Assembly: GCA_030649135.1 (NCBI GenBank)
Contig: JAUSGI010000008.1
Span: 152,896-216,895 of the forward strand
DNA from: a bacterium
GTDB lineage: Bacteria > Patescibacteriota > Minisyncoccia > Phycocordibacterales > Zambryskibacteraceae
DNA length: 64,000 nt
Reading direction: 5' to 3'
Positions 24,935 through 59,067 of the stretch are shown here, piece by piece (the stretch's first letter is position 1; each line of letters begins with the position of its first letter). A program made the position numbers and the translations under genes. The notes under the pieces were generated by a model. That model was not told the origin of the DNA, did not search any database, and saw only the letters and a list, made by a program, of their open reading frames with translations.

Positions 24935-25228
24935 CTACTTATACGGTGGTAAAAGTGGTAAACCGAACGGTCGACTGAAGCCTATGTCTCTATATGCGAA
25001 GGCGAGAATCGCCATAAGAGATGATAGCACAAAAAGCGCTATTAGTCCCCACTTCATTAAATTCTTGCCTTCCTCAACAGCCTTCTCGTCCCCGCCGACA
25101 CGGAAGATAAACTTGACCAGGCCCCAGAGGAACACCAATAAAGCAAGACTCGCGATTACAGGCAAGGCCGTGCGTATCAAGTCGATAAAGATATCCACCA
25201 GACCCTTGAAATCGCTTGGAGGGTTCAT
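24935..25228 (-). CDS. Pilin-like small membrane protein, paralog 4
   Basis: Core FLWGLVKFIFRVGGDEKAVEEGKNLMKWGLIALFVLSS. Confidence 0.6.
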   Translation of the reverse strand: MNPPSDFKGLVDIFIDLIRTALPVIASLALLVFLWGLVKFIFRVGGDEKAVEEGKNLMKWGLIALFVLSSLMAILAFAYRDIGFSRPFGLPLLPPYK

Positions 25229-25578
25229 CTTAGTTTATTAATAGTAGTCTCAATCACTTGCGCAAGCACCCAAGAACCGAGTAAGACCGCAGTACCCACA
25301 GACGTGTAGAGTAACGCCTTGTGGGCGGTCTTAAGATTCGTCTCATTGCCTTGTGCTGTGACATAAAGAAAGCCGGAATAGATGAAAGAGAGTACCGCAA
25401 GTACCCCGCCGATGGGTAGAATAATCTTGTCGATAATTATCCTAAGGAGGGTAAAGAGCGTGCAGTCCGAGCCACAGTTAATCGGGTTCTTTAGGGTTAA
25501 ACCATAAACCGAGACCGTGCCTAGGACAAAAAATATGGAGAATGATATTAGGGCGACGGATAATTTTTTCATGCTCAT
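25225..25578 (-). CDS. Pilin-like small membrane protein, paralog 5 (T4SS TrbC/VirB2-like)
   Basis: Signal peptide, a Cys pair (CGSDC), core GGVLAVLSFIYSGFLYVTAQGNETNLKTAHKALLYTSVGTAVLLGSW. Confidence 0.6.
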   Translation of the reverse strand: MSMKKLSVALISFSIFFVLGTVSVYGLTLKNPINCGSDCTLFTLLRIIIDKIILPIGGVLAVLSFIYSGFLYVTAQGNETNLKTAHKALLYTSVGTAVLLGSWVLAQVIETTINKLR

Positions 25579-25581
25579 GAT

Positions 25582-25890
25582 TTAAGGCGCACCCAAGAGA
25601 GAGTAGCCAGTATTAAGCAAGACACTCGTTATAGTATAAATCAGAAGCCAAGCTCCGAGTATCCACAGGTAGCCGACAAGTACTTTCCGGAAAATCTCTT
25701 TTGCCTTCGTCTTGGCCGACTCGTTACCGCCCGATGTCAGTAGGATAAAGCCAGCGTAGGCAAAAGCGGCGGTAGCAAGAAAAGTGGAGATGACTATCAG
25801 ATTATTTATAAGGTTTTGAGCAAGCAAAATCAGACTGGAGAAGGTACATAGTTTTTCCACACCATCACAGACTATAAGTGTCTTCCACAT
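25582..25890 (-). CDS. Pilin-like small membrane protein, paralog 6
   Basis: Core AAFAYAGFILLTSGGNESAKTKAKEIFRKVLVGYLWILGAWLL. Confidence 0.55.
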   Translation of the reverse strand: MWKTLIVCDGVEKLCTFSSLILLAQNLINNLIVISTFLATAAFAYAGFILLTSGGNESAKTKAKEIFRKVLVGYLWILGAWLLIYTITSVLLNTGYSLLGAP

Positions 25891-25892
25891 AA

Positions 25893-27176
25893 TTATGGTT
25901 TTATTAGCGCTTCAATCTCATTATGGGCATGGTAGACTGCCTCGAGAGTGCGGGCACGGCCACTGGTTACGGATTCTATTGCGTTATGAAAGATTGTTTT
26001 GGTCATCACGGTATCAGGGTCCAGCCAGCCCTTAGACTGAAGCGCCGCATCGTAAAAGACAGACAATGCCGTGTCAGCCGGTCTTACAGATAGGAGGTCG
26101 CGCCGTGCCGGTGGTAGAGAAAGAATCTCGGATAAAGCCCGCGCCACATCTTTTGACACCAATTTGGTGGCGAGGGCAAGTGCGGCGCCGGGATTTAGAG
26201 AACCGCGGGATATGGCCACCCCTCGCAGTCGCCCGAAGGTAACAGTCTTACCGGTGACTCTCGACTGGGGTACGGATGAGACGGCAAAGTTGAGAATGGG
26301 GTTTTTGTTCCTAAGCACGCGAAGTTCTGATGCAAAGCCCAGATAATAAGCGGAATCGCCACTTGTGAAGTGGGTCTGGGCATCAATGAGCGAACGATTC
26401 CAACTATAGTAGACCCTCGTCGGGTTTGAGAATTGGGTGTAAAAACTTAGGGCCGCCTCACCCGGCGAAATTGTCAAACCAAAAGTTTCGGCGATTTGTG
26501 AGCGCAATTCTATTCCGGCCAAACTGGTAATAGGCGTGCCGGCCTGAAGTAGCAGTAGAGCGAGAATGTCTTTGGCATGAGGAATATTTCGCGCCTCCCC
26601 CAGAGCCATGACCGAAGAAATGAGATTACCCGCGGCATCCTTTTTAGATAGATTGGTAGCGGCCGGATATATTTCATCCCAATACACAATAGGTCTGGCT
26701 TGCCCCGCTGCCGTAAGCAAATCTCTATTATAGTAAAGCACCAAGGGGTCTAGAGAGAGAGGAAGAGCGTAGATACCACCCGGGTCAAGGAAGAGTTCCC
26801 CTTCTTCAATGAATACGCTCTTGAAATCTCGCTCATTCACATTGCTGTAAGAAATGAGCGCGAGCTTGGGCTTATTTTTCCAAAGTTTGTCTTGAGTGAG
26901 AATAATCAGGTCAGGGCCAGTTCCCCGCGCCAACGCTTCGGTAAATTCCGCCTCTATTGTGTCAGCTGACTTTTCTTCATAACTTACGGAGAATGCCCGG
27001 TCTTCACCAAGAAGGGATGGGGTAAGTAAAAGATTAAAGTCCTGTGAGGTAATATCTCCCCAGACGGTTAAGGCAACATTCTGGCCACCAGAACCGCGAT
27101 ACAAAGAGAAGGCCGCCACGCCGGCGACAATAGCAACCGCGAAAATCGCTAAGAGAATAATCTGAAACTTTGACAT
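25893..27176 (-). CDS. Membrane-anchored extracellular solute-binding-protein-like protein (MalE/family-1 SBP fold)
   Basis: N-terminal TM anchor. VALTVWGD...GTGPDLIILTQD...LVLYYNRDLL pattern typical of sugar-type SBPs. First gene of the pilin-array operon. Confidence 0.55.
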   Translation of the reverse strand: MSKFQIILLAIFAVAIVAGVAAFSLYRGSGGQNVALTVWGDITSQDFNLLLTPSLLGEDRAFSVSYEEKSADTIEAEFTEALARGTGPDLIILTQDKLWKNKPKLALISYSNVNERDFKSVFIEEGELFLDPGGIYALPLSLDPLVLYYNRDLLTAAGQARPIVYWDEIYPAATNLSKKDAAGNLISSVMALGEARNIPHAKDILALLLLQAGTPITSLAGIELRSQIAETFGLTISPGEAALSFYTQFSNPTRVYYSWNRSLIDAQTHFTSGDSAYYLGFASELRVLRNKNPILNFAVSSVPQSRVTGKTVTFGRLRGVAISRGSLNPGAALALATKLVSKDVARALSEILSLPPARRDLLSVRPADTALSVFYDAALQSKGWLDPDTVMTKTIFHNAIESVTSGRARTLEAVYHAHNEIEALIKP

Positions 27177-27219
27177 ATGTTAATCCTACACTAAAACTAA
27201 AAGAACTAATCCCCATTGC

Positions 27220-27240
27220 TGTCAAAGACCGTCTTTGACA
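27220..27240. repeat. REP-like 21-bp palindrome tgtcaaagaccgtctttgaca (copy 1a)
   Basis: Near-perfect palindrome 11 bp upstream of the RAYT-1 start. Confidence 0.8.
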
Positions 27241-27250
27241 TAATAGGTTC

Positions 27251-27898
27251 ATGGGTAATAGAGACTATAAAAAATTTGCCACTGGAACTATCTTTCATAT
27301 ATACAATAGAGGCAATAACCGAGAAAAAATTTTCCATGATGAGCAGGACTATAAAGCGCTAATATTTAGAATTGGTCTGGCACTAGGATTCGAAGAAAAA
27401 GAACTGTCACATCAATTATGTCACCAACCATATTCAAGAATCAGGATTACAGGCACACATAAAGGAAAATTCAAGCTACACGCTTTTTGTCTTATGCCAA
27501 ATCATTTTCACTTACTTATCGAACAGTGTGAAGATGTGCCTATATCGAAAATTATCTCGAAAATATGTGCAAGTTATGCTAAATATGTAAATAAAAAATA
27601 CAAAAGAGTCGGGCATGTATTTCAGGATAAATTTAAAGCAGTACTTATGGAATCAAATGAACAACTTATGTGGATTTGCACATATATACACATGAATGCA
27701 GTGAAGGACAGTATGGTCAAACATCCAGATGAATATGTATGGAGTAGCTACAATGACTATACAACTGACAGAAATCTGCCAATCATAAATACTGACTTTT
27801 TGATCTCACTATTTGGTGATAAAAATAGTTTCAAAAAAGAGACCCTCCGCCCTTACTCAGATAGCCTGTCAAAGACCGTCTTTGACATTAAGAGTTGA
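27251..27898 (+). CDS. REP-associated tyrosine transposase (RAYT) / IS200-like Y1 HUH transposase, paralog 1
   Basis: YxxxRGN N-terminal motif (FHIYNRGNNREKIF), HUH motif CLMPNHFHLLIE and catalytic Tyr region CTYIHMNAV. AT-rich gene flanked by REP palindromes. Confidence 0.75.
   Translation: MGNRDYKKFATGTIFHIYNRGNNREKIFHDEQDYKALIFRIGLALGFEEKELSHQLCHQPYSRIRITGTHKGKFKLHAFCLMPNHFHLLIEQCEDVPISKIISKICASYAKYVNKKYKRVGHVFQDKFKAVLMESNEQLMWICTYIHMNAVKDSMVKHPDEYVWSSYNDYTTDRNLPIINTDFLISLFGDKNSFKKETLRPYSDSLSKTVFDIKS
27867..27887. repeat. REP-like palindrome tgtcaaagaccgtctttgaca (copy 1b)
   Basis: Identical to copy 1a. Overlaps the last codons of RAYT-1 (KTVFD). Confidence 0.8.
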
Positions 27899-27918
27899 AA
27901 CATATCGGTCTGGATTAT

Positions 27919-28695
27919 TTATTTCAAAACCACCATCAGGTGATCTGAGAAATCGATATAGCCACCCTTTTGATATTCTTTGATTTTCTTAAGGAACTCT
28001 TCAGCCTCTGTATCATTCGGAAAAGAATCAGTATTATGAATAAATCTATAGAAAATCTTGAGGTCAAAACGGCTATTAGTCGTAAGGATATCTCCAACAA
28101 ACATTCTCATCCTTAATCTCTTAACCTCGACCTTAAACCCGAGTTTCTTATAGAAATCAGCGATGTATTCTGCATAATTAAATTCTGGGTAAACCTGTTG
28201 CAACATTATCTTATAGTGATCGCTATCTTCAGGAAGAGTGAGAATAAGCAATTTGCCATCATTATTTAATAAGTCAGGAAGTTTAGAGAGTTGTGCATTA
28301 TAATCTTTTTCATTGAGACCCCAGTAATAGTTTGTGTGGGATGTAAAGACAATATCGTATTTTTTATCAGTTTTAAAAGTAGCAAGACTCCCTGGAAAAC
28401 ATTCCCCAATGTTATTTTCCAGAGTTAAAAATGCTTTGGCTGATGATAAGGCATTTTGATTAGGTTCAAGTAAGTCACAAATGTAGTCTCCTTCAACACG
28501 GTCAAGAATCTGCTTTGTAGTGTGGCCTTCGCCGCAACCAATATCAAGAACGAGTTTATTGGGGGAATTTTGAGTATTTATCTCTTTTACAATTTCAGCT
28601 ACAATCCCAAACCAATCCTCAGCAAAACTACGAATGTAGATATTTTCGTATACATCTGAAAATTCTTTTTCTCCCCAGAAATGCCACTTTGCCAT
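27919..28695 (-). CDS. Class I SAM-dependent methyltransferase
   Basis: Motif I LVLDIGCGEGHTT. AT-rich. Lies between REP copies 1b and 1c. Confidence 0.7.
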   Translation of the reverse strand: MAKWHFWGEKEFSDVYENIYIRSFAEDWFGIVAEIVKEINTQNSPNKLVLDIGCGEGHTTKQILDRVEGDYICDLLEPNQNALSSAKAFLTLENNIGECFPGSLATFKTDKKYDIVFTSHTNYYWGLNEKDYNAQLSKLPDLLNNDGKLLILTLPEDSDHYKIMLQQVYPEFNYAEYIADFYKKLGFKVEVKRLRMRMFVGDILTTNSRFDLKIFYRFIHNTDSFPNDTEAEEFLKKIKEYQKGGYIDFSDHLMVVLK

Positions 28696-28727
28696 AATAT
28701 TTTTTATTTCAGGATAATGTCAAAGAC

Positions 28728-28748
28728 GGTCTTTGACATACACATACA
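28728..28748. repeat. REP-like palindrome tgtcaaagacggtctttgaca (copy 1c, inverted centre)
   Basis: Same arms with centre g instead of c, so opposite orientation. Confidence 0.8.
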
Positions 28749-28783
28749 TTTGAGAATGGAGATTTTTTCACAAGCATAAATAA

Positions 28784-31222
28784 TCAAAAACAAATTAAGG
28801 AAGCTATGCTATCCCCCTCTCTTAATTTCATAATCCTTACTCCCTGAGTCTGGCGACCCAACTCCGGAATCTCTTTGAGCCCAACCCGGACTACCTGACT
28901 CTTTTTGGAAATAGCTATGACTTCGTCTTCTTGGTCGGTCACCACTTGCGAGGCGATAACCTGACCAGTTTTCGGTGTCACTTTAGAAGTGAGAATACCG
29001 GAACCACCCCTGCCTTGTACTTTGTATTCGGATAGTTCCGTGCGCTTACCGTAGCCATTGGCAGAAATGACCAAGAGATGACCCGCTTTCTCTTCTGATT
29101 TGATATGGTGCGCGCCCACGACCAGGTCCCCTTTGCCGAGCTTAATCCCCCTCACTCCTCCCGCGCCACGGCCCATCTCACGAATGGCCGATTCCTTAAA
29201 CCGGATGGACTGGCCTTTTTTCGTCACAATGGACATGTCATCGTTCTTCTCGACCAATTCAACCGATATCAATCTGTCTCCCGGAGAAAGTTTGATGGCA
29301 ATGATGCCGGAAGCGCGCACGTCATGAAAACTTTTAGCCGAGACTTTCTTGGCGGTACCGTTTTCCGTAATCATAAATAGCGAACCACCGATATCCTTCT
29401 TGCCCTTGCCCATCGCCAGAATGGAAGTCACCTTCTCGTCATCAGAAAGTGAAATGAAATTCATCACCGACTTGCCGCGCGTAGCGCGCTTACCCTCCGG
29501 AATGTCATACATCTTGATTTGATAAGCCTTACCCTTGTCGGTAAAGAACAAGAGGTCGGCATGGGTGCTGGCAGTCAAAAAATTGGTGACAAAGTCCTCT
29601 TCTTTGGTATCCAGGTCTACCACTCCTACCCCGCCACGTTTCTGGCGTCTGTATTCATCCGGATTGGTGCGCTTGATGTATCCACCTGATGTTAGAACTA
29701 GCGTATTCTCTTCCTCTGGCACCAAATCTTCGACAGAAAGAATTTTGACTCCCCCTTTGATTACTTTGGTGCGACGCTCGTCACCATACTTATCTTTAAT
29801 ATCTTGTAGTTCAGTCTTGACTACTTTTAAAATTTTAGCGTTCGAGGCCAATAATTCTTTCAGCTCTTTGATAAAAGCTTGGACTTCTTTAAGTTCATCC
29901 TCCACTTTCTGGCGTTCCAGACCGGCCAGTTTCTGGAGCTTCATTTCGAGAATGGCATTGGCCTGCAATTCGGAAAGTTTAAATTCTTTTATCAAACCGG
30001 CTCGGGCGTCGTCAACGCTTGATGAGGCTCGAATGAGTTTGATAACTCGGTCAATGTTGTCGAGAGCAATCGTAAGACCGAGCAGAATGTGTTCGCGTTC
30101 CTCGGCTTTGGCCAAATCAAATGCTGTACGACGCTTGACCACTACCTCTCGATGTTTGAGAAACTCAATGAGCATGCTCTTGAGTGATAGAGTCTGAGGT
30201 ACGCCATCGACCAATGCCACGAGATTGAAGTGGAAAGTTTCCTCGAGTTGGGTATGTTTGTAGAGAGCATTTAAGATTTTCTGCGGTTGACTGCCATTTT
30301 TAAGATCAATAACCACCCGAACGTCTTTAGTCGACTCATCACGCAAACCCTTCACCCCTTCAATCTTCTTCTCTCGCACTAAGTCCGCAATTTTAGGTAT
30401 TAACCCCTCCGCTTTATTTACTCGGTATGGAATCGCGGTGATGATAATCTGATTACCGCCGCCCTTACCTTCCACAATCTCAGCCACACCACGGACCACC
30501 ACTGGCCCTCGACCGGTAGCATAAGCATGGTGAATATCTTTTTCATTAAAAATAATACCGCCAGTGGGAAAGTCTGGGCCCTTTATAAACCCGAGTAAAT
30601 CTTCCGTAGTCGCATCACGATTATCAGCTAGGTGGACCGTAGCATCAATAACTTCCGAAAGATTATGAGGTGGAATATTGGTAGCCATGCCCACGGCGAT
30701 ACCCAAAGTACCGTTGAGTAAAAGGTTAGGCGTTGCCGCCGGTAAAACTACCGGCTCTGACCTTGTACCATCGTAATTGGGTCTGAAGTCTACCGTATCT
30801 TTATCAATATCTTTAAGCATTTCACCTGCCAGACGTGACATCTTCGCCTCGGTGTAACGATAAGCAGCGGCACTATCTCCGTCTATTGAACCGAAATTTC
30901 CTTGTCCGATAACCAAGGGATAACGCATCGAGAAATCCTGTGTCATTTTGACCATGGCTTCGTAGACAGAGGAGTCGCCATGCGGGTGATATTTGCCGAG
31001 CACGTCTCCAACGATGGTGGCGGACTTCTTGGTCTTAGCGCCCGCGTTAAGACCAATCTCATTCATGGCATAGAGAATACGGCGGTGCACCGGCTTGAGG
31101 CCATCACGCACATCAGGCAATGCGCGGTCGGTGATGACCGACATGGCATAGTCGATAAACGACTCCTTCATCTCGCTCGTAATCGGGCGAGAGATAACTC
31201 TGTCTCCGTCCTTATTCGCCAT
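28784..31222 (-). CDS. gyrA: DNA gyrase subunit A
   Basis: [29 protein letters not shown]. Full GyrA with C-terminal beta-pinwheel repeats. Confidence 0.9.
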
Positions 31223-31565
31223 ATACATCTAAAGCGCCATCTCTCATCTCTTTGTATTCAGCTTCCAAGTCTACCGCTTTTAAACCGGACTTGAGCGCTC
31301 CGAAATTCTCCCGAAAGGCTTCGAGACTGGTGCTCAAGTTCATGCGCAATGATTCAAACGGACTTACTTCCGTCTCCGGTTGAGCAGACGCTTCTTGAGA
31401 ACTGCCACTTTCGGCGACAATCTTTGTGTTGGTACTATTAATACCGAAAGTGGCGAGAGACCAAACTCCGAAAATAAAAAGGGTGATAGAGCTTGAAGCC
31501 AGAAAGGCAAATTGCTTCTTATGGCGTTCGGGTTTGGTGTGAAGTGTTGAAAGATATCTACGCAT
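31212..31565 (-). CDS. Hypothetical small membrane protein
   Basis: Single TM helix. No recognisable domain. Confidence 0.3.
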
Positions 31566-31577
31566 ATTCGTTATTTA

Positions 31578-32252
31578 TTATTCTTCTTTAATTACCACAA
31601 TCTCGCCTTCTTTGCCTTCCAAGTCTTTCTTCTTAACCACCAATTTATCGAGTGATTCCATTCTAGCTTGGCCACCTTCTTTTATAAACTGTTCCAAAGT
31701 CTCTTTAGTATAGTACATCGGTATGATAATAGACGGCTCGAGAGAAACGGCAAGTTTATAAGCGGATGCCGCACCCAACATACCTTGTCCGCCGATAGGC
31801 ACAAACAGTATATCGATATCTTCTATCGCTTCGAGAGTCTCATCCGAGAGAGTTGGATTGGCGAGCGCGCCGAGGAAACATAGATTCATCCCTTCGAAGA
31901 AGACGAGATAAATTGTATTTATTTTCTTGGCGGGCTTGCCCGCCGACCCGGTGGCGGGTCCTTCCGAAAGAAAACCCTTTACGAAAACGTCTTTGATTTC
32001 ATACTCGCCCGGACCGTCTATGACGAAAGACTCTTTATCGCCCCCGCCTGCAATGCCTGCGGATGCATGGCGGGCAGGTCGAGAAGTCTGGTCACGCCCG
32101 TTAAAGTCGGGCAGATTCGTAGTAATGAGAGTGACATCAGCGCCAAATCTCGCTGGTTTTAATTTAGAATCTTTCGATATCGGATTGAACGCCAGGGTAA
32201 TATCTCCTTGGGAGATTTTGAAGCATTCCGCGCCGTGATAAGTGATTACCAT
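31578..32252 (-). CDS. MBL-fold metal-dependent hydrolase (COG2220-like)
   Basis: Beta-lactamase-fold periodicity (MVITYHGAECFKI...). No classic HxHxDH motif, so the fold assignment is weak. Confidence 0.55.
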   Translation of the reverse strand: MVITYHGAECFKISQGDITLAFNPISKDSKLKPARFGADVTLITTNLPDFNGRDQTSRPARHASAGIAGGGDKESFVIDGPGEYEIKDVFVKGFLSEGPATGSAGKPAKKINTIYLVFFEGMNLCFLGALANPTLSDETLEAIEDIDILFVPIGGQGMLGAASAYKLAVSLEPSIIIPMYYTKETLEQFIKEGGQARMESLDKLVVKKKDLEGKEGEIVVIKEE

Positions 32253-32321
32253 TGCTCCATTTTAGCATAAAACAGTGCTATTTGCCAGCGTTTTCCGCCT
32301 TGAATTCCCTTCCCTTTCTTC

Positions 32322-32350
32322 TTGACAAAGAGTGTTATATATGATAGGAT
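32322..32350 (+). promoter_or_regulatory. Putative promoter TTGACA-N17-TAGGAT (TGtTATATA nearby) upstream of the LysM gene
   Basis: -35 at 32322-32327. Candidate -10 at 32345-32350. Confidence 0.35.
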
Positions 32351-32427
32351 TCTAGAGGACCTTGGGAGCACCTGCCATACCGGCATGGTGCGCTCGTTAA
32401 CCCAGTTCATTCACAAGGAGACAAGAG

Positions 32428-33564
32428 ATGACACGACGCATTGCTTTGTTCACGCTGGTCGCAATCCTCTGGATTGCTCAGACCAGCCTCGCGCAGGCAC
32501 CCTATCAGGTGAAGGAGGGAGACACCCTCTACGCCCTGAAGGGGATCTACTCGGCTAACCAACCCGAGTGGAAAGCGCTCACGATCGTGAACCCGCAGCT
32601 CGCGGAACCCGGCCGAGCCTTCACCGATACGCAGAAACGATTTATCGTCATCCTGCGCCTGGGTGAACGGCTCAAGGGCCTCGAAATGCTCGGCATAACC
32701 GCCCAGCCGATACTCGTTACCGGGTTCGTAGCGCCAGCGCCGACCACGAAAAACGTCGTCACAGACATCACTGCCAGTGCCGATAGCCACAACAGGTGGC
32801 TCATCGCGCTCATGGCAACAGTGTTGGCGCTCATCATTCCCTACCTGATCTTCCGGTATCTGCCGGAATCGCGTAGGCCGAACCTTCCGTTCCTCGGGAG
32901 GTATAACCCGGCACTCACCACGAACCCTGTCACGGCGGCTCCCCCGATGGTCGCCGGAGGCATCGCCTCTGACAATCATGACGCTATCAGGCGCCAGTTC
33001 CGGGAACAGGCGGCGCGGACGTACGCGTCGACGCACGGCGGTGTTATACCCCAGATGAGTGACATCCGCATCGTCGGCAACATCATCCATGGTACGCTAC
33101 ACGACGTCTGGGAAACCTCAGACGCCAATGGCCGCTGGATTCCCCGCCGCTACAACGGCGAGCCAGGGTTCCAGGCGATGGTCTCGGTCAACAACGCCGA
33201 ACCAGCGCTCCAGACATGGTCACAACCATGTGGCAACGATCTGCGTATCGGGCGACGCTACCGTGGCGGGCGCTTCATATCCCGCCCTGCGGCCGGGACG
33301 ATTCCGGCTCAGGCTCCAGCCACTCCAGTGGCTCCGCTTCGTCCGCACATCGCGGTGGCGCAGGAGCCGGACGGGCAGGTGGTCACCATCACGGTCGGCG
33401 GTATGCGTTACACCACTCATGGCAATGACATCCACGTCAACGTGGATCAGGGGGGCGCTGTGACGGATGTCACAGCGAACGGCCAGATCCGCGTGGCGAA
33501 GGTGCCGAAGCGGACGAAACCACGTGTGGTACGACCGGCGGCGACAGGTACACGCGACAAGTAG
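32428..33564 (+). CDS. Secreted/membrane LysM-domain protein (GC-rich island)
   Basis: Signal peptide, LysM motif YQVKEGDTLYALKGIY, internal TM. About 60% GC versus ~47% background. Confidence 0.6.
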   Translation: MTRRIALFTLVAILWIAQTSLAQAPYQVKEGDTLYALKGIYSANQPEWKALTIVNPQLAEPGRAFTDTQKRFIVILRLGERLKGLEMLGITAQPILVTGFVAPAPTTKNVVTDITASADSHNRWLIALMATVLALIIPYLIFRYLPESRRPNLPFLGRYNPALTTNPVTAAPPMVAGGIASDNHDAIRRQFREQAARTYASTHGGVIPQMSDIRIVGNIIHGTLHDVWETSDANGRWIPRRYNGEPGFQAMVSVNNAEPALQTWSQPCGNDLRIGRRYRGGRFISRPAAGTIPAQAPATPVAPLRPHIAVAQEPDGQVVTITVGGMRYTTHGNDIHVNVDQGGAVTDVTANGQIRVAKVPKRTKPRVVRPAATGTRDK

Positions 33565-33619
33565 TACAAACGCGGCCAGACGTTAATCTGGCAAAGTCCG
33601 GGGAGACTTAACTCCCCAC

Positions 33620-33651
33620 GGGCAGGTCATCGTGACCTGCCCTTTTTCGTT
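33620..33651 (+). terminator. Rho-independent terminator
   Basis: Hairpin gggcaggtca-tcg-tgacctgccc followed by ttttt. Confidence 0.55.
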
Positions 33652-33657
33652 ACAAGT

Positions 33658-33975
33658 TTATACGCGAGGGCGGGCTAAAAAGGCGAACCACATGAAATAG
33701 CGTTCAACATCCGGCAGGAAGCTGTGATATTCCTTTCCCCCCAGAACCGCATCGGCGAAGACTTCTCTCGCTCGGTCAATTTCTGACCTGCGTTTTTTCC
33801 ACCTCTTGTCCATTTGCGTCAGCTCGAAAAGTTCCATGGCTCGTCCCACCGCTCCCCAGAAAGATTTCTCGTCTTTACCTTGCCACTTGGCGGCACGTCC
33901 GACTTCACTACCAATATTACCGAGTTGTTCGGCCAGAGTCAGAGTAAACCACCTTTCTTTCGAGACCGTTGCCAT
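33658..33975 (-). CDS. Hypothetical all-alpha protein
   Basis: 105 aa, helical, no confident family. Confidence 0.35.
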   Translation of the reverse strand: MATVSKERWFTLTLAEQLGNIGSEVGRAAKWQGKDEKSFWGAVGRAMELFELTQMDKRWKKRRSEIDRAREVFADAVLGGKEYHSFLPDVERYFMWFAFLARPRV

Positions 33976-33976
33976 G

Positions 33977-34327
33977 TTACTTAACTATCTTAGTTACGAT
34001 TTCTACAATTTTATTTTGGATTCCAATATCCCCAACACCTCGAGTCTTATTGCCAAGGACTGGCTTAAGATTAATCATTGAATCGAATTCAATAAAATCT
34101 TCCCCAGATTTTTCTAGATATAAGTTGATGCCCCAAGTATCCTCCCCGCGCGAATTTTCTTTTTCAATAAGTTGCGACTGTATATCGACATGGAGTTCCC
34201 CACCAACTCCCAAGATACCTTGCCCGACATCTACTACCGCCTTTATGATATCGCCATAAAGTTCGCGAGCGAGTTCCCTTAGCTCTTCTCTGGAAATTGA
34301 ATCCTTGACTATTCTTGTTTCAACCAT
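33977..34327 (-). CDS. Hypothetical protein
   Basis: 116 aa. Tightly linked to the previous gene (2-nt gap). Confidence 0.35.
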   Translation of the reverse strand: MVETRIVKDSISREELRELARELYGDIIKAVVDVGQGILGVGGELHVDIQSQLIEKENSRGEDTWGINLYLEKSGEDFIEFDSMINLKPVLGNKTRGVGDIGIQNKIVEIVTKIVK

Positions 34328-34362
34328 GGGGATATAATAGCATCAACTTTTGACCTTTTTGT

Positions 34363-35541
34363 TTGATTTTGATATTATGGACCCCGTTCCTTATTAACCC
34401 CCGCTTTCGTTACCCCCCGCGCTTCGGCAAACACTCTATAAAGCGCGAGGACCGGAAACGGCCCATCAATTTGACTACTAATACTGCAGAAGTTGACGCA
34501 TTTCTAACAAGCATCCCCAATCCCCCTTCCATCGATGACCTCGTGGAAGGTCCTGTCATCAGTATTGATAAAGGCGCGGTCTATGTCGACCTGCCGCCTT
34601 TCGGCACCGGTATCATCTACGGTCGCGAGTTTATAAACGCCCGAGACATTATCAAAAAGATTAACGTCTCCGACATTGTCGCCGGCAAAGTGGTCGGCAT
34701 CGGTGGTAAAGAAGGTTATATCGAAATTTCCCTGAAGGAGGCGCGTCAGGCCCTAATCTGGAGCGAGGCTGAGGAAGCTATTCGCGAGAAACGCATATAC
34801 GAGCTTCCTATCACAGATGCCAACAAGGGTGGTCTCATTATTAACTGGCAAGGCCTCTCCGGTTTCCTGCCTGCTTCCCAACTTAAACCGGAACATTACC
34901 CGCGCATCTCCGACGGAGACAAAGACAAAATTCTTGATGAATTGAAGAAACTGGTTGGGGAAAAACTCTCGGTCACCATTATTGGCGCCAGTCCCAAAGA
35001 AGGCAAACTTATTTTCTCGGAGAAAAGTCCCGAGACCAAAGATAAAGAAAATATTGTGGCCCGTTACACTTTGGGCGACGAAATTGTGGGCGAAGTCACC
35101 GGTCTCGTCGACTTCGGTATTTTCATTAAACTGGAAGAAGGGCTGGAAGGGCTGGTGCACATCTCGGAAATTGATTGGGGTCTTGTAGAAAATCCCAAAA
35201 CCATGTTCAGGATAGGTGAAAAAGTACGTGTGAAGGTTATCGAGATTAAGGATGACAAAATTTCTCTCTCTATTAAAGCCTTGAAAGAAAACCCTTGGCG
35301 AGAAGCGGAAAAGAAATACAAGAAAGACGCCATTGTAGACGGTATCATTATTAAATTCAACAAGTACGGAGCGCTTGCTTCAATTGAGGAGGGTGTGGCG
35401 GGCCTGGTGCATATCTCCGAATTTGGTTCGGAAGAAAAACTGCGCGAGAAACTCGAAATGGGCAAGGTCTACACTTTCAAAATCACCCTCTTCGACCCCA
35501 AAGAGCAAAAGATGGCACTCTCGTTCATCGACAAGAAATAA
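34363..35541 (+). CDS. rpsA: 30S ribosomal protein S1 (multiple S1 domains)
   Basis: Repeated S1 motifs (GxV..I..fGaFV-like: GKVVGIGGKEGYIEIS, GEVTGLVDFGIFIKLEEG, etc.). No in-frame ATG near the conserved start, so probably a non-ATG start. Confidence 0.75.
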   Translation: MILILWTPFLINPRFRYPPRFGKHSIKREDRKRPINLTTNTAEVDAFLTSIPNPPSIDDLVEGPVISIDKGAVYVDLPPFGTGIIYGREFINARDIIKKINVSDIVAGKVVGIGGKEGYIEISLKEARQALIWSEAEEAIREKRIYELPITDANKGGLIINWQGLSGFLPASQLKPEHYPRISDGDKDKILDELKKLVGEKLSVTIIGASPKEGKLIFSEKSPETKDKENIVARYTLGDEIVGEVTGLVDFGIFIKLEEGLEGLVHISEIDWGLVENPKTMFRIGEKVRVKVIEIKDDKISLSIKALKENPWREAEKKYKKDAIVDGIIIKFNKYGALASIEEGVAGLVHISEFGSEEKLREKLEMGKVYTFKITLFDPKEQKMALSFIDKK

Positions 35542-35550
35542 TCCATCCCT

Positions 35551-35575
35551 TTGTCAAACACTGGGTGTTAGACAA
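35551..35575. repeat. REP-like imperfect palindrome ttgtcaaacactgggtgttagacaa (copy 2a)
   Basis: Abuts the RAYT-2 stop codon. Confidence 0.7.
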
Positions 35576-36235
35576 CTATAGGATCTTCAAATAATCTAGC
35601 TCTTCTTCTAGAAGTTTTGCTGGACTTGTCCTAGTAAACTCTTGGTATTTGTCTGGGCCTTTGAATTGACCTAGAACGATTTCTGATAAAAGCAGACTTC
35701 CCCATCGATTTTCTTTTATAAAATCTTGATAGCTTGACCAAGGATATTGGTCTTCTTTCTTAAACCACTTCCCAATCTCTCTCGGGTTTCTATGAATATA
35801 GCTAGACAGATATAAAAGCTGATGATCACCTTCTATATGAACCGCACGATAAGGCCCTTGAAAAACATGTCCAGATTTATCATATCTGGTATTGTAATAT
35901 TTGGCATAAGCATTAAGCACTCTCTGCATATAAGCTGCTATGCCTTCTTCTTCAACTTCTTTGACCAATAAGTGGAAATGGTTTGGCATGATACGGAAAG
36001 AAACAAGCTCAACTGTACGCTTTTTAACAATCTCCTCTGTATTATCTAACACCCGGTGTTTGACGAAATCCTTTACTGACCTACCAACCTGTGGAAAAGT
36101 TACTTCTGATTGGAAGTAAAGAATGAGGAAAAGAAATCTGTTGTAGTCTCCTGTATCATGAAAAATAACTTGTTTGTGTACACCCCTATTACACAAATGA
36201 TAATACTCGTTTGGAGACAACCGTGTTCTTCTCAT
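35576..36235 (-). CDS. REP-associated tyrosine transposase (RAYT)/IS200-like, paralog 2
   Basis: YYHLCNRGVHKQVIF, HUH FRIMPNHFHLLVKE, Tyr motif SYIHRNP. AT-rich. Confidence 0.75.
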   Translation of the reverse strand: MRRTRLSPNEYYHLCNRGVHKQVIFHDTGDYNRFLFLILYFQSEVTFPQVGRSVKDFVKHRVLDNTEEIVKKRTVELVSFRIMPNHFHLLVKEVEEEGIAAYMQRVLNAYAKYYNTRYDKSGHVFQGPYRAVHIEGDHQLLYLSSYIHRNPREIGKWFKKEDQYPWSSYQDFIKENRWGSLLLSEIVLGQFKGPDKYQEFTRTSPAKLLEEELDYLKIL

Positions 36236-36245
36236 ATATTCATTA

Positions 36246-36270
36246 TGTCAAATACCCGGTGTTTGACAAA
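36246..36270. repeat. REP-like imperfect palindrome tgtcaaatacccggtgtttgacaaa (copy 2b)
   Basis: 10 bp upstream of the RAYT-2 start. A degenerate third copy lies inside the gene at 36045-36064. Confidence 0.7.
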
Positions 36271-36287
36271 CTTATATATCCTTAATA

Positions 36288-36842
36288 TTACTTGACCGGA
36301 TGGTCAAGTTGATAAATCTGGGTATCGTAGCCTCTGGTTTCTTCGTCATTTCTGGAAAGTCCCAGAGATTCAAGTTCTTTGAATAATTCTTCCCTGACTT
36401 CCTCTGCGTCGATGTCTTCTTCAGTCAGCTTTTCAAGCTCGATAAATGTCCCAAGTTTTTCCACTTCATCCAGACAAATCTCATACGGTCCGAGTTTGCC
36501 CTTCCGACGCATTTTCTTTACCTCGACTACCGGATACCACCCCAGTAGCTCAAGCATATGGTGGACTTGTTTCGGATCTGCCACTTCTGTCTCGCACTCA
36601 ATATTGTCGCTCTCGTTGGAACGCTGCTGTTTGAGGGTAAGCTCAGCAGAATCCTTCAAGTAGCGGATGCGAATAACAATATCTCCCTCCTGTGCCGATT
36701 GGAATTCATTCCTCGAACCCTTGAGAGAATAGACAACATCATGCTGGCTTATCGGTTCTGAAAGAACGCAGCCTTTCTCTTTGAGCTTTTGCTCAATTTC
36801 TTCCAGATTCTTCGCTTTCAGCTTTACTTCTATTTCTCTCAT
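36288..36842 (-). CDS. CYTH-domain protein (class IV adenylate cyclase / triphosphatase-like)
   Basis: N-terminal MREIEVKLKA (ExExK motif) and acidic C-terminal strands. Confidence 0.65.
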   Translation of the reverse strand: MREIEVKLKAKNLEEIEQKLKEKGCVLSEPISQHDVVYSLKGSRNEFQSAQEGDIVIRIRYLKDSAELTLKQQRSNESDNIECETEVADPKQVHHMLELLGWYPVVEVKKMRRKGKLGPYEICLDEVEKLGTFIELEKLTEEDIDAEEVREELFKELESLGLSRNDEETRGYDTQIYQLDHPVK

Positions 36843-52064: not shown

Positions 52065-53891
52065 CTAACCACGGCGAATCATCTTGAGAAAAACGTCTTG
52101 GGAAATATTTACTTTCCCGCGCTCCCGCATCTTCTTCTTGCCCTTCTTTTGTTTCTCCCGGAGCTTCATTTTGCGGGTAATATCACCGCCATACATATGC
52201 TGGGTGACATCCTTCTTCATGCCGCTAAGGGTCCGTGAGGCAATAATGCGACCAAGAGCCTTGGCCTGAATCTTCAGCGTAAACATCTGCCTAGGCAAGG
52301 CAGCGGCCAGTTTATCCACATCCGATTCAGACTCTGTCTCAACTTGTCTGCGGGATATTACTTTGGCAAAGGCCGGCACCACTTCATCGGCTATCAAAAT
52401 ATCCAGACGAGTAACGTCCGCCAGTCTTTCACCGGCTAGCGAGTAAGAGATGGAGCCAAAACCGGATGTCGCGCTTTTAAGCTTATCGAAGAAACCTCTC
52501 ATCAGTTCCCGGAGGGGCATTTCAAAAGAGAGTGAGGCGCGCGCCTCACCGAAATTTTCCGTCTCCCCAAGCTCTGCCTCAAACTCATAAAGAAGCTGAA
52601 CCACCGGACTGATAAATGCGGGCGGCACAATGACCGTAGCTTTCACCCACGGTTCCCACACCGAACTTACGAGATGGTCTTCAGGAAAAAATGATGGGGT
52701 ATAAACTTGCCCCTCACTGCCATTTTTGTATACGATTCTATACGTGATACTCGGCAAAGTGATGACCAGGGGCAGATTAAATTCACGTCTCAATCTTTCG
52801 GTGATAATCTCCAGATGAAGCATGCCGAGAAAACCGGCGCGGAAACCCCTACCAAGCACGCTGGAGGATTCTTCTTCGAAAGAGAATGCCGAGTCGGATA
52901 GACGTAGTCGGGAAAGGGCCTGTTTCAAAGCGGTGAAGTGGTCTTGATTCTCCGGGTAAATAGAAGCCCAAACTACAGGAAAGGGCTTCGCATAGCCAGC
53001 CAAGGCGGGACTACCGTCGGTGCTCGCGGTAATCGTATCGCCAACAGAAGCGATTCCGGGCTCCTTGATGCCTGTGACAATGTAACCTATTTCCCCCGAT
53101 ACCAGTTCCGATACCTTCTTCTCCTCCGGGGTAAACACACCAACTTCTAGAGACTGAAACTCTTTGTCCGCCACTTTGAACCTTAACTTATCACCCGACT
53201 TCACAGACCCGCTAAAAACACGCACAAAGACAATAACCCCTCGGTGATTGGAATACTGGAAATCAAAAACCAGACTTCTGAACCCCCCCGAGGAAAGACC
53301 TAGGGGAATTCCCCTAGGTCTTTCCTCGGGGAATTGCGGAGAGTCGTGACTGGAGCTGGGCGGCGGTACACGTTTAATGATTTCGTCCAAAAGATTTAAT
53401 ACACCTTCCCCTGTTTTACCGGAAACAAGTAAGACCTCGTTACTATCTATGTGTAAAAGTTTGGAAATCTCTTCCTTGACTTCCGCCACCCGCGCCAGAG
53501 GAGAATCAATTTTGGAAATAACGGGAATAATTTTGAGTTGAGCGACCTCGGCCATCCCTAGCGTCGTTAAGGTTTGAGCTTGCACCCCCTGCGTGGCATC
53601 CACCAGAAGTATCGAACCCTCCACGGCACCGAGAGCGCGCGACACTTCGTAAGAAAAATCGATATGGCCGGGAGTATCTATCAAATTTAAAATATACTCC
53701 CCATATTTCATCCGCACCGGTTGCATCTTTATGGTAATTCCCCGCTCACGTTCAAGCTCCATGGAGTCGAGTACTTGCTCGCGCATGTCCCGCTTGGCTA
53801 TCGTGCCGGTCAACTCAAGCATCCTGTCCGCCAAAGTAGATTTGCCGTGGTCAATATGCGCTATGATGCTGAAATTACGAATCTTATCCAT
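52065..53891 (-). CDS. lepA: Elongation factor 4 (LepA)
   Basis: FSIIAHIDHGKSTLADR G-domain. LepA-specific C-terminal domain ...GGDITRKMKLREKQKKGKK. Confidence 0.9.
   Translation of the reverse strand: MDKIRNFSIIAHIDHGKSTLADRMLELTGTIAKRDMREQVLDSMELERERGITIKMQPVRMKYGEYILNLIDTPGHIDFSYEVSRALGAVEGSILLVDATQGVQAQTLTTLGMAEVAQLKIIPVISKIDSPLARVAEVKEEISKLLHIDSNEVLLVSGKTGEGVLNLLDEIIKRVPPPSSSHDSPQFPEERPRGIPLGLSSGGFRSLVFDFQYSNHRGVIVFVRVFSGSVKSGDKLRFKVADKEFQSLEVGVFTPEEKKVSELVSGEIGYIVTGIKEPGIASVGDTITASTDGSPALAGYAKPFPVVWASIYPENQDHFTALKQALSRLRLSDSAFSFEEESSSVLGRGFRAGFLGMLHLEIITERLRREFNLPLVITLPSITYRIVYKNGSEGQVYTPSFFPEDHLVSSVWEPWVKATVIVPPAFISPVVQLLYEFEAELGETENFGEARASLSFEMPLRELMRGFFDKLKSATSGFGSISYSLAGERLADVTRLDILIADEVVPAFAKVISRRQVETESESDVDKLAAALPRQMFTLKIQAKALGRIIASRTLSGMKKDVTQHMYGGDITRKMKLREKQKKGKKKMRERGKVNISQDVFLKMIRRG
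53286..53331. repeat. Perfect 46-bp palindrome inside lepA, in frame (ccccgaggaaagacctaggggaattcccctaggtctttcctcgggg)
   Basis: The sequence is its own reverse complement. Encodes PEERPRGIPLGLSSGG in the lepA frame. Related to the dnaE element. Confidence 0.85.
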
Positions 53892-53908
53892 AATGATTCC
53901 AGGCAACC

Positions 53909-58340: not shown

Positions 58341-58362
58341 GACGAGGAAAGACCTCGTGGCG
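58341..58362. repeat. REP-like hairpin gacgaggaaagacctcgtggcg (copy 3a)
   Basis: 19-nt core CCACGAGGTCTTTCCTCGT (reverse complement) identical to copy 3b. Preceded by a separate 13-bp hairpin (58308-58338) at the rnpB 3' end. Confidence 0.75.
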
Positions 58363-58381
58363 TGGTACTATAAACAACATA

Positions 58382-59044
58382 ATGGGAGCAAGGCAAGGAA
58401 GTTTCGCTGCGGGAGAATACTACCACTTATACAATCGCGGTAATAGTAAACAGAAAATTTTTCACAGCAAACACGATTATGAGCGTTTTTTAAAGTTGCT
58501 ATATATTGCAAACTCTTCAGAAAAATTCCACTTCTCCGACATTCAAAATCCATACGAGATAGAAAGGTCTGCCCGACTGGTATCAATAGGAGCGTATTGC
58601 TTGATGCCAAATCATTTTCATCTACTGATGACGCCTGTGAACGACAAAGAAGCTGGGGTAAGTAAATTTATGAAAAAATTAGGCACTGCTTATGCTATGT
58701 ATTTCAATACAAGGTACGAGAGAGTGGGAAGCCTTTTCGAGGGAAAATTTAGATCAGAACATCTTGACTCAGACCGTTATCTCAAATATATATTTTCTTA
58801 TGTACATCTTAATCCTATAAAGATTATGGATAACAAATGGAGGGAACTTGGTATTAAGGACAAAAACAAAGCCTGGCGATTCCTCAATGGATACAAATAC
58901 TCAAGTTTTTATGATTACCAGGATAAACACAGGGAGGAAGAGAAAATTTTGAACAAAGAAAATTTTCCTGGCTACTTTCCCTCTGCACATAAGTTTAAGG
59001 AAGAAATATTTGATTGGCTAAACTTCAGCAACCGAAAGCAATAA
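58382..59044 (+). CDS. REP-associated tyrosine transposase (RAYT)/IS200-like, paralog 3
   Basis: YYHLYNRGNSKQKIF, HUH CLMPNHFHLLMT, Tyr motif SYVHLNPIK. AT-rich. Confidence 0.75.
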   Translation: MGARQGSFAAGEYYHLYNRGNSKQKIFHSKHDYERFLKLLYIANSSEKFHFSDIQNPYEIERSARLVSIGAYCLMPNHFHLLMTPVNDKEAGVSKFMKKLGTAYAMYFNTRYERVGSLFEGKFRSEHLDSDRYLKYIFSYVHLNPIKIMDNKWRELGIKDKNKAWRFLNGYKYSSFYDYQDKHREEEKILNKENFPGYFPSAHKFKEEIFDWLNFSNRKQ

Positions 59045-59067
59045 CCACGAGGTCTTTCCTCGTGGTT
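59043..59067. repeat. REP-like hairpin aaccacgaggtctttcctcgtggtt (copy 3b)
   Basis: 10-bp stem with a 5-nt loop. Inverted relative to copy 3a. Confidence 0.75.

Follow-up and report, generated by a model that had tools for sequence, protein, structure and literature searches.

The locus described here raises a simple question: is an AT-rich pair of genes framed by identical palindromes a mobile element recently inserted beside gyrA, or a long-standing resident? It lies in a 64,000-nt stretch of contig JAUSGI010000008.1 (Zambryskibacteraceae, Patescibacteriota), which is the whole DNA analysed and is called the window below. Genomes of Patescibacteria are about 1 Mb or less. Between gyrA and the gene of a solute-binding protein (SBP), the window carries a Y1/HUH transposase gene and a methyltransferase gene together with three copies of a 21-bp palindrome. 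We conclude that this is probably a Paceibacteria REPtron, that is, a gene of the REP-associated tyrosine transposase (RAYT) type (REP, repetitive extragenic palindrome) bracketed by its cognate palindrome and held between SBP and gyrA, with a third copy closing a one-gene slot. The palindrome is also dispersed at low copy in about 60 Patescibacteria genomes, mostly in frame within genes.

The module and its transposase

The module extends from the SBP start codon to the gyrA stop codon (27177-28783). SBP (SBP_bac_8, 25893-27176, start codon at 27176) and gyrA (28784-31228, stop codon at 28784) are both on the minus strand. The 21-mer TGTCAAAGACCGTCTTTGACA, a perfect palindrome, occurs three times in the 64 kb, where none is expected (100 dinucleotide shuffles), and no further copy was found there at up to 3 mismatches. 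Hairpin 1 (27220-27240, plus strand, centre C) lies 10 nt 5' of the transposase ATG, the position of the upstream cognate hairpin in about 40 homologous loci. Hairpin 2 (27867-27887, plus strand, centre C) is located within the last transposase codons (…SLSKTVFDIKS*), between the convergent transposase and methyltransferase genes. Hairpin 3 (28718-28738) has G at its centre on the plus strand, so it is exact on the minus strand; it lies 22 nt 5' of the methyltransferase ATG and 45 nt past the gyrA stop, and closes the cargo slot. A preliminary description of this DNA had correctly located the first two copies and the overlap of copy 2 with the transposase codons; it placed the third at 28728, which is 10 nt too high, and the feature ends at 28738, not 28748. 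Folding of the copies as single-stranded DNA (ssDNA) gave, in each case, a stem of 9-10 bp closed by a loop of 3 nt, at -7.2 to -8.4 kcal/mol and with z from -4.5 to -6.2.

The transposase gene (27251-27898, plus strand, 215 aa) is intact, and the convergent gene (27919-28695, minus strand, 258 aa) encodes a class I S-adenosylmethionine-dependent methyltransferase (Pfam Methyltransf_12/25/23), as had been proposed. No other stretch of the window is as AT-rich as the module, whose GC content is 0.33-0.36 against 0.45-0.55 in its flanks. Transposase and methyltransferase have 34.1% and 35.3% GC, and GC contents at third codon positions (GC3) of 0.32 and 0.33, whereas SBP and gyrA have 50% and 48% GC and GC3 of 0.50 and 0.51; the offset noted in the preliminary description is therefore confirmed. 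For window open reading frames (ORFs) of at least 300 codons the mean GC3 is 0.51 (sd 0.07).

The transposase belongs to the Y1/HUH fold, its nearest relative of solved structure is E. coli TnpA-REP, and its catalytic residues are intact. It matched Pfam Y1_Tnp (PF01797) with 46.1 bits against a cut-off of 23. The HUH motif N84-H85-F86-H87 and the catalytic Tyr motif Y145-I-H-M-N149 (Y145-I-H-x-N149 across the family) are invariant in 20 homologues, and the window protein keeps every invariant column. A single-sequence search of the PDB returned nothing relevant and a profile was required; the profile search gave TnpA-REP 4ER8 as its sole match (E 0.009), in which PEHMHCI and Y115 align with the HUH and Tyr motifs. 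Using Foldseek with an AlphaFold model (core pLDDT 75-85, overall 61, C-terminal third unreliable), 4ER8 was again the best match (E 9e-5), followed by IS608, ISDra2 and IS200 TnpA, and the top 30 PDB matches were all Y1 transposases. These results bear out the earlier identification of a RAYT-like Y1/HUH transposase. The protein has an insertion of about 30 residues between helix 1 and strand 2. Homologues at E ≤ 1e-5 number at least 4,930 and are mainly Patescibacteria proteins of about 208 aa, some of which are labelled RayT by JGI. A profile search of 1.84 billion cluster representatives gave 15,856 relatives at E ≤ 1e-10; the closest scored 1e-103 and the next 1e-57, so the clade of interest is essentially a single 50%-identity cluster.

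Cognate hairpins, a syntenic locus and a variable slot

A metagenome scan with the transposase family alignment returned 80 loci, many of them from related populations; what was read were the stretches around the matches. Across these loci the flanking palindromes co-vary with the gene. In about 40 loci at 55% identity or more, one palindrome is present on either side of the gene: its first copy ends 10-24 nt 5' of the ATG, and its second is at or just past the stop. All these loci share the outer stem TGTCAA…TTGACA, while inner stem and loop vary from locus to locus (AGACCGTCT, AGGGCATCT, AGAGACACT, GGATGCCCC, GGACCGTCC and others). The variants are perfect palindromes too and differ by compensatory pairs. 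The two hairpins of one locus match each other, as direct or reverse-complement copies about equally often, and paralogues at 33-45% identity carry unrelated palindromes. As in the window, C-terminal tails of the homologues are encoded by the hairpin, in two frames. In 771 kb of palindrome-containing DNA there were 115 perfect copies and 3 with one mismatch, always at an outer base. We also considered the centre base, to which the preliminary description had drawn attention as inverted in the third copy, as a marker of orientation; this was rejected, as it is the same or inverted relative to the gene about equally often.

Hairpin 1 is the spacer of a putative transposase promoter (27216-27244, plus strand), which consists of TTGCTG at 27216-27221, a 17-nt spacer formed by the hairpin and CATAAT at 27239-27244, with the ATG 6 nt on. 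The same layout, TTG(n)TG, hairpin as 17-nt spacer, CATAAT, 6 nt and ATG, is found in 14 loci including the window; the remaining loci have TGnTATAAT 5-8 nt 5' of the ATG. This arrangement suggests that transposase mRNAs may be leaderless and start beside the protein's own predicted binding site. A generic promoter scan did not call the putative promoter, whose -35 element matches at 3/6 positions. A candidate for the methyltransferase with its -35 in hairpin 3 (TTGACA-18-TATTAT, 11/12) was scanned and not relied on; its -10 overlaps the ATG.

The locus is syntenic across dozens of genomes. Among 52 informative loci (clade members at 50% identity or more, not all independent), a homologue of the window's SBP and/or gyrA adjoins the transposase gene in 47. 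Both genes are visible in 31 of the 47, and there the order is SBP (minus strand), transposase (plus), an optional single gene (minus) and gyrA (minus). GyrA of these loci is 61-87% identical to that of the window. One subclade (L140, L141, L145, L148 and L151) is located elsewhere. No sampled genome showed two copies of the clade in the stretches read around the matches. Pairwise identities of transposase and gyrA are correlated (Spearman 0.54, 528 pairs), and the transposase is fast-evolving, with identities of 66-87% in pairs whose gyrA identity reaches 90% or more.

The low GC of the transposase gene recurs as well. Its GC3 is below that of gyrA in 32 of 33 syntenic loci (L020-L152), with a mean gap of 0.16 and a maximum of 0.37 (0.30 against 0.67 in L132), and the two values correlate across loci (r = 0.68). 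A syntenic paralogue in the window (35576-36235) also has a GC3 of 0.32. AT-richness is therefore a family trait that cannot date an acquisition, and low GC was rejected as proof of recent transfer for the transposase. Together with the 47 syntenic loci, this does not support, for the transposase, the earlier proposal of a probable mobile or recently acquired module. Expression control, mutational bias and recurrent replacement are possible causes of the low GC3.

Comparison with related strains, which the preliminary description had called for, did reveal presence and absence of the module. In three related lineages (L194, L195 and L196/L197), whose GyrA is 88-92% and SBP 68-79% identical to the window proteins, gyrA is followed directly by SBP with a spacer of 48-225 nt; the module is thus present or absent among relatives. 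Between empty and filled loci, neither the length nor the sequence of the spacer from hairpin to gyrA stop is conserved, and no homology was found. The SBP start ATGTCAAAG was considered as a half-site target and rejected as a coincidence; relatives have ATGTCC or ATGAGT there.

Individual alleles differ in their likeness to the window. At L115 the transposase is 79%, GyrA 70% and SBP 44% identical, and the hairpin type is different (GGGGCATCC); at L116 the values are 67%, 87% and 77%, also with a different hairpin type. L106-L108 have the same hairpin type, with 84% identity for the transposase and 75-76% for SBP (GyrA was not seen), and their homology to the window stops exactly at the last base of hairpin 2 (27887). 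After hairpin 2, L107 encodes an unrelated 327-aa basic Cys-rich protein (1989-2972) that has no recorded Pfam match or window homologue and is possibly another mobile element.

Two further observations concern the locus. Small T4SS_pilin-like genes form a conserved array after SBP (window 25225-25890; relatives L106 and L195-L197). A Logan contig, L109 (SRR13727527_526898), is a separate short-read assembly of the same locus, with gyrA, methyltransferase and transposase fragments 100% identical; it stops inside the transposase gene, which fits palindromes breaking short-read assemblies.

Between conserved outer flanks, the content of the slot (from the 3' hairpin to the gyrA stop) turns over. 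In about 15 syntenic loci the slot is near-empty (6-145 nt). A filled slot is 260-970 nt long with a single gene, which in nearly all cases shares the strand of gyrA and converges on the transposase gene. Families found there are Methyltransf_11 (6 loci), NUDIX (2, mutually unrelated), Cupin_2 (2), DUF6122/YdjM (2), GTP cyclohydrolase II, GrpB, RraB, isochorismatase, PsbP-like and lycopene-cyclase-like proteins and a GATase fragment. In L121, L122, L127 and L134 the outer genes are all orthologous and the slot gene is different, so turnover is confined to the hairpin-bounded interval. The dynamic part is the slot, with other genes in its place in relatives, no hairpins around the closest methyltransferase homologues and the end of homology to L107 at hairpin 2; in addition, three related lineages are without the module altogether.

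The methyltransferase of the window is treated here as cargo, and no role in the mechanism is implied. Its Pfam matches are generic class I domains only (RrnaAD 21 bits, cut-off 24), and all NCBIfam equivalogs are far below their cut-offs (Erm and RlmA 15-17 bits against 212-303). The suggested check against rRNA and DNA methyltransferase families therefore gave no match above threshold in Pfam or NCBIfam. With a model of pLDDT 88, the top Foldseek matches were BioC, Tam (trans-aconitate methyltransferase), JHAMT and UmaA, with CmaA and phosphoethanolamine methyltransferase among the other neighbours; the protein resembles small-molecule methyltransferases and not those of DNA or rRNA, and its fold points to substrates of small carboxylate or lipid-like type. 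Patescibacteria hold 217 homologues at 60-84% identity. The four closest with readable context (L110-L113) are in DNA of 31-37% GC, at other loci and without hairpins. No homologue was found in 105 palindrome-containing loci, and the methyltransferase was accordingly rejected as a recurrent passenger.

Palindromes inside genes and other Y1 genes of the window

The core 19-mer of the palindrome was found in 105 stretches (L001-L105) from about 60 species-representative genomes, almost all of Patescibacteria, with at most about 9 exact copies seen per genome. The full 21-mer is invariant among the dispersed copies, a sample that the exact-match search biases towards perfect ones. ORFs of 120-980 codons contain 69 of the 118 distinct copies, each of them in the frame for S-K-T-V-F-D. 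This peptide is identical on both strands, and the centre base is the third position of the Thr codon. The frame reading C-Q-R-x-S-L-T is used by at most 8 copies. In 9 copies the palindrome provides a stop codon (VKDRL*), usually the one of the transposase itself. Host genes of intragenic copies include LeuRS, ThrRS, UvrC, LigA, PGK, IscS-like proteins and a reverse transcriptase. In fourteen orthologous groups all 21 bases are kept, while the ±45-nt flanks average 70% identity.

How such copies entered genes differs from case to case. The copy in LigA of L022 is a true insertion (+6 aa). In LigA of L042, M-S-K-T-V-F-D-K-L-N aligns without gaps to Bacillus M-P-K-A-S-F-L-R-L-N within a conserved motif, and the replacement retains the conserved M, K and F. 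The palindrome site in LeuRS (L054/L088) is of the same length as in six hairpin-free orthologues, and codons are also replaced without length change in the reverse transcriptase of L013/L017/L097 and in L032/L105. A model of pure insertion was therefore rejected for LigA (L042) and LeuRS (L054). The all-or-nothing mismatch spectrum would be consistent with conversion of proto-sites in short tracts, a process that has been discussed for HIP1 and uptake sequences. A phage origin of the palindrome was rejected, as the 21-mer had 0 matches in viral contigs. Some palindrome contigs are labelled as other than Patescibacteria: L051/L089 (Simkania), L017 (Bacteroidota), L043 (Prevotella), L085, L090 and L103. 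L051/L089 hold the Paceibacteria SBP-transposase-gyrA locus and L017 has the same reverse-transcriptase gene as Nomurabacteria contigs; the labels are probably due to mis-binning.

The window contains two other Y1_Tnp genes, which scored 44.3 and 31.1 bits against PF01797. The second (35576-36235, minus strand, 219 aa, GC3 0.32), which has 30% identity to the first, is in synteny with the tnp-S1 gene locus of L194-L196. It is flanked by imperfect hairpins of the TGTCAAAYAC…TTTGACA type, TGTCAAATACCCGGTGTTTGACA at 36246-36268 and TGTCAAACACTGGGTGTTAGACA at 35552-35574, and has an in-frame internal copy at 36043-36065 (…FVKHRVLD…); like the first, it shows the order hairpin, TAAT, 6 nt, ATG. Just upstream of its 5' hairpin lies a CYTH-domain gene (36288-36842), where L194 and L195 have pth and L196 a small DAGK-like ORF; this position may be another variable slot. 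The third gene (58382-59044, plus strand, 220 aa, 31% identity to the first) stands between two copies of CACGAGGAAAGACCTCGTG in inverted orientation (58341-58359 and 59046-59064). Inverted dimers of a unit related to its hairpin form two perfect 46-nt palindromes inside other genes. One (8217-8262; TCCCCTAGGAAAGACCTCGGGGT / ACCCCGAGGTCTTTCCTAGGGGA) is in frame (…VKDN-VPLGKTSGYPEVFPRGY-KIRFGL…) in a DnaE-like ORF (5179-9006, plus strand), named from its sequence motifs; the other (53286-53331) is in frame (…PQFPEERPRGIPLGLSSGGF…) in lepA (52065-53906, minus strand), whose product has 18 extra residues at the palindrome linker relative to Thermus EF4 (5IMQ).

In many genomes the first RAYT clade and the second paralogue are both within a few kb of gyrA (window 28784-36235; L114-L152, L194-L196). 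E. coli REPs are mentioned in PMC3733652, with citation of other work, as reported gyrase targets. A functional link between RAYT and gyrase is conceivable.

Interpretation and comparison with known systems

If the module were an autonomous insertion sequence (IS) of the IS200/IS605 type, or a small transposon with the methyltransferase as passenger, recently inserted between gyrA and SBP, then the empty site of L194-L197, the module GC3 of 0.32-0.33 against 0.51 in host genes, the end of homology to L107 at hairpin 2, the methyltransferase relatives in genomes of 31-37% GC and the discordant identities of some transposase and host genes would all be expected. We nevertheless think this origin quite unlikely. 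The clade occupies the same locus in 47/52 loci at GyrA identities of 61-87%, and both the syntenic paralogue and 32/33 loci show the AT offset. The two ends carry one and the same perfect palindrome, in either orientation, instead of distinct imperfect left and right hairpins with cleavage tetranucleotides. Moreover, no multi-copy genome was seen in the stretches read, and the protein has 215 aa, compared with 125-150 aa for the solved TnpA chains among the fold matches. The constant location could instead reflect target choice and not descent, in the manner of Tn7 at glmS: a site-specific element repeatedly targeting the region downstream of gyrA would produce presence or absence in near relatives, discordant alleles and variable cargo. 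We give this a slim chance, since transposase and gyrA identities are positively correlated, the hairpin-to-gyrA-stop interval is conserved neither in distance nor in sequence, one subclade is elsewhere, and no targeting protein is encoded.

Finally, the palindromes might be host regulatory or structural sites (operator, bidirectional terminator or mRNA stabiliser) beside a transposase that is an inert relic. The place of hairpin 2 between convergent genes, those of hairpins 1 and 3 just 5' of start codons, and the TTGACA within the palindrome agree with such a role. It is nonetheless highly improbable, given that the hairpin co-varies with the adjacent gene in about 40 loci and differs for paralogues, that the transposase retains every invariant catalytic residue, that most dispersed copies are within ORFs, and that no known RNA family (Rfam) or intrinsic T-run terminator was found within the module.

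Several results also weigh against a REPtron. The NCBIfam equivalog for RAYT (REP_Tyr_transpos, NF047646) scores 61 bits, below the cut-off of 80, over residues 70-165 only. The residues that contact the GTAG guide in E. coli TnpA-REP, W94, Q95, E100, H101 and R104 (Quentin 2018, PMC6006769), align to F, Q, A, V and E, so that Q alone is retained. In the flanks of 121 copies no conserved 5' tetranucleotide was found beside the hairpin; the preferences are limited to R at -2 and Y at +20, and beyond the 21 nt the first outer pair is enriched (57 observed, 40 expected) and nothing further. Loop orientation relative to the gene is random, which is odd for a strand-specific ssDNA enzyme unless either strand serves. 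A perfect third hairpin stands by gyrA in only about 10 of about 26 filled slots, the window included, and, with cargo on the gyrA strand, some of the variation may simply be normal flux of genes downstream of gyrA. Discordance between transposase and host identities in places fits horizontal replacement. Lastly, we infer the binding and cutting of hairpins by members of this clade from the biochemistry of TnpA-REP and IS608.

By that analogy, the REPtron protein would bind the hairpin when extruded on ssDNA, and cut and rejoin DNA beside it through the HUH-Tyr mechanism. Such cutting and joining could keep the palindromes perfect and seed new ones, and breakage-joining or recombination at the hairpins could swap the slot gene. 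With the upstream hairpin in or against its promoter, the protein may also repress its own gene. A bolder proposal, which we think unlikely, is that a domesticated Y1/HUH enzyme and its palindrome constitute an editing system, with a hairpin-delimited gene-exchange slot by gyrA and single-frame writing of the palindrome into coding sequence. The slot would then be a functional analogue of an integron cassette site run on HUH single-strand chemistry, writing would proceed partly by codon conversion without length change, with copies long kept perfect, and a host-level function of the palindrome, such as gyrase sites or replication-linked processing, would be implied.

Most descriptions of REP-RAYT systems concern Proteobacteria and other large genomes; here three paralogues, each with its own palindrome, are present in 64 kb of a tiny-genome organism. 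One locus with many cargo genes offers a natural series for asking whether Y1 enzymes mediate gene exchange. Another subject for study is a 21-bp palindrome that remains perfect in essential genes with flanks diverged to about 70% identity. Cases in which the palindrome overwrites conserved codons and is not inserted are relevant to the spread of REPs, an unsolved question. In practice, palindromes of this kind break short-read assemblies and add false 'insertions' to alignments of Patescibacteria proteins. In the full-text literature we found no paper linking REP-RAYT to the Candidate Phyla Radiation or Patescibacteria, and searches for the 21-mer motif or its peptide gave no matches. The fixed gyrA linkage, the one-gene variable slot, the dominance of a single frame and codon replacement without length change are not described in the literature searched.

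The architecture is REPtron-like. Like the REP-RAYT systems of Escherichia, Pseudomonas and Stenotrophomonas (PMC5581495; PMC6006769), of which TnpA-REP 4ER8 is the structural representative, it comprises an apparently single-copy gene with the Y1/HUH fold and, on either side of it, members of its own short palindrome family; paralogues in one genome each have their own palindrome, and copies are scattered over the genome. Transmission here may be mostly vertical, with horizontal replacement now and then; RAYTs are reported to occur as one copy per genome, housekeeping-like and mainly vertically transmitted (Bertels 2017, PMC5581495). The differences are equally plain. Canonical REPs are extragenic, high-copy, imperfect palindromes with a 5' GT[AG]G tag at a GC-rich hairpin foot; here there is no such tag, the E. 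coli tag-reading residues are not conserved, and the palindrome is a perfect 21-mer with an AT-rich stem and a TGTC foot (2/4 GC). At most about 9 exact copies per genome were seen, against hundreds in E. coli, and at least 58% of the sampled copies are intragenic. The term REP palindrome, used in the preliminary description, is thus apt for a transposase-associated repeat and not in its canonical sense, and the protein falls below the NCBIfam equivalog. Non-IS Y1 genes are enriched in genomes above 5 Mb (Quentin 2018, PMC6006769), in contrast to the tiny genomes of the present hosts. The gyrA-adjacent position fixed over a class-level clade and the one-gene variable slot inside the hairpin frame also set the present system apart.

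IS200/IS605 elements such as IS608 and ISDra2 share the catalytic fold and the recognition of subterminal DNA hairpins, and some members carry passenger genes. Their left and right ends are distinct, with imperfect hairpins and with tetranucleotides for guiding and cleavage; they are multi-copy and mobile with a TnpA of about 125-150 aa in the solved chains, whereas the present gene has identical palindromic ends in either orientation, is apparently single-copy and syntenic, and encodes 215 aa. The slot recalls integron attC cassettes, in that single, promoterless-looking, unrelated genes are delimited by a folded-DNA site beside a recombinase at a fixed chromosomal place; with an HUH/Y1 protein in place of the IntI tyrosine recombinase, and zero or one gene in place of arrays, this is an analogy only. 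The intragenic copies can be compared with HIP1 of cyanobacteria (PMC5861425) and DNA uptake sequences, motifs that selection or molecular drive likewise maintains in coding sequence, at orthologous positions and with protein length unchanged; those motifs are 8-12 bp long, hyper-abundant and without a link to a Y1 transposase, while the present one is 21 bp long and low-copy.

The closest parallels to the intragenic copies are intragenic REPs and Rickettsia palindromic elements (PMC3733652), which occur as in-frame repeats in DnaE, excinuclease, DNA ligase and aminoacyl-tRNA synthetases. As in-frame REPs have been reported in the same kinds of genes (PMC3733652; PMC6006769), this feature is not new in kind. 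Those intragenic repeats are a minority and lengthen the protein by 20-30 or more residues through insertion; in the present case single 21-mers predominate, one frame is almost exclusive (69 copies against at most 8), and several copies replace codons without length change inside conserved motifs. The CGTC/TGTC-tagged families of PMC3733652 are without a dedicated transposase, whereas the TGTC-starting palindromes described here have one.

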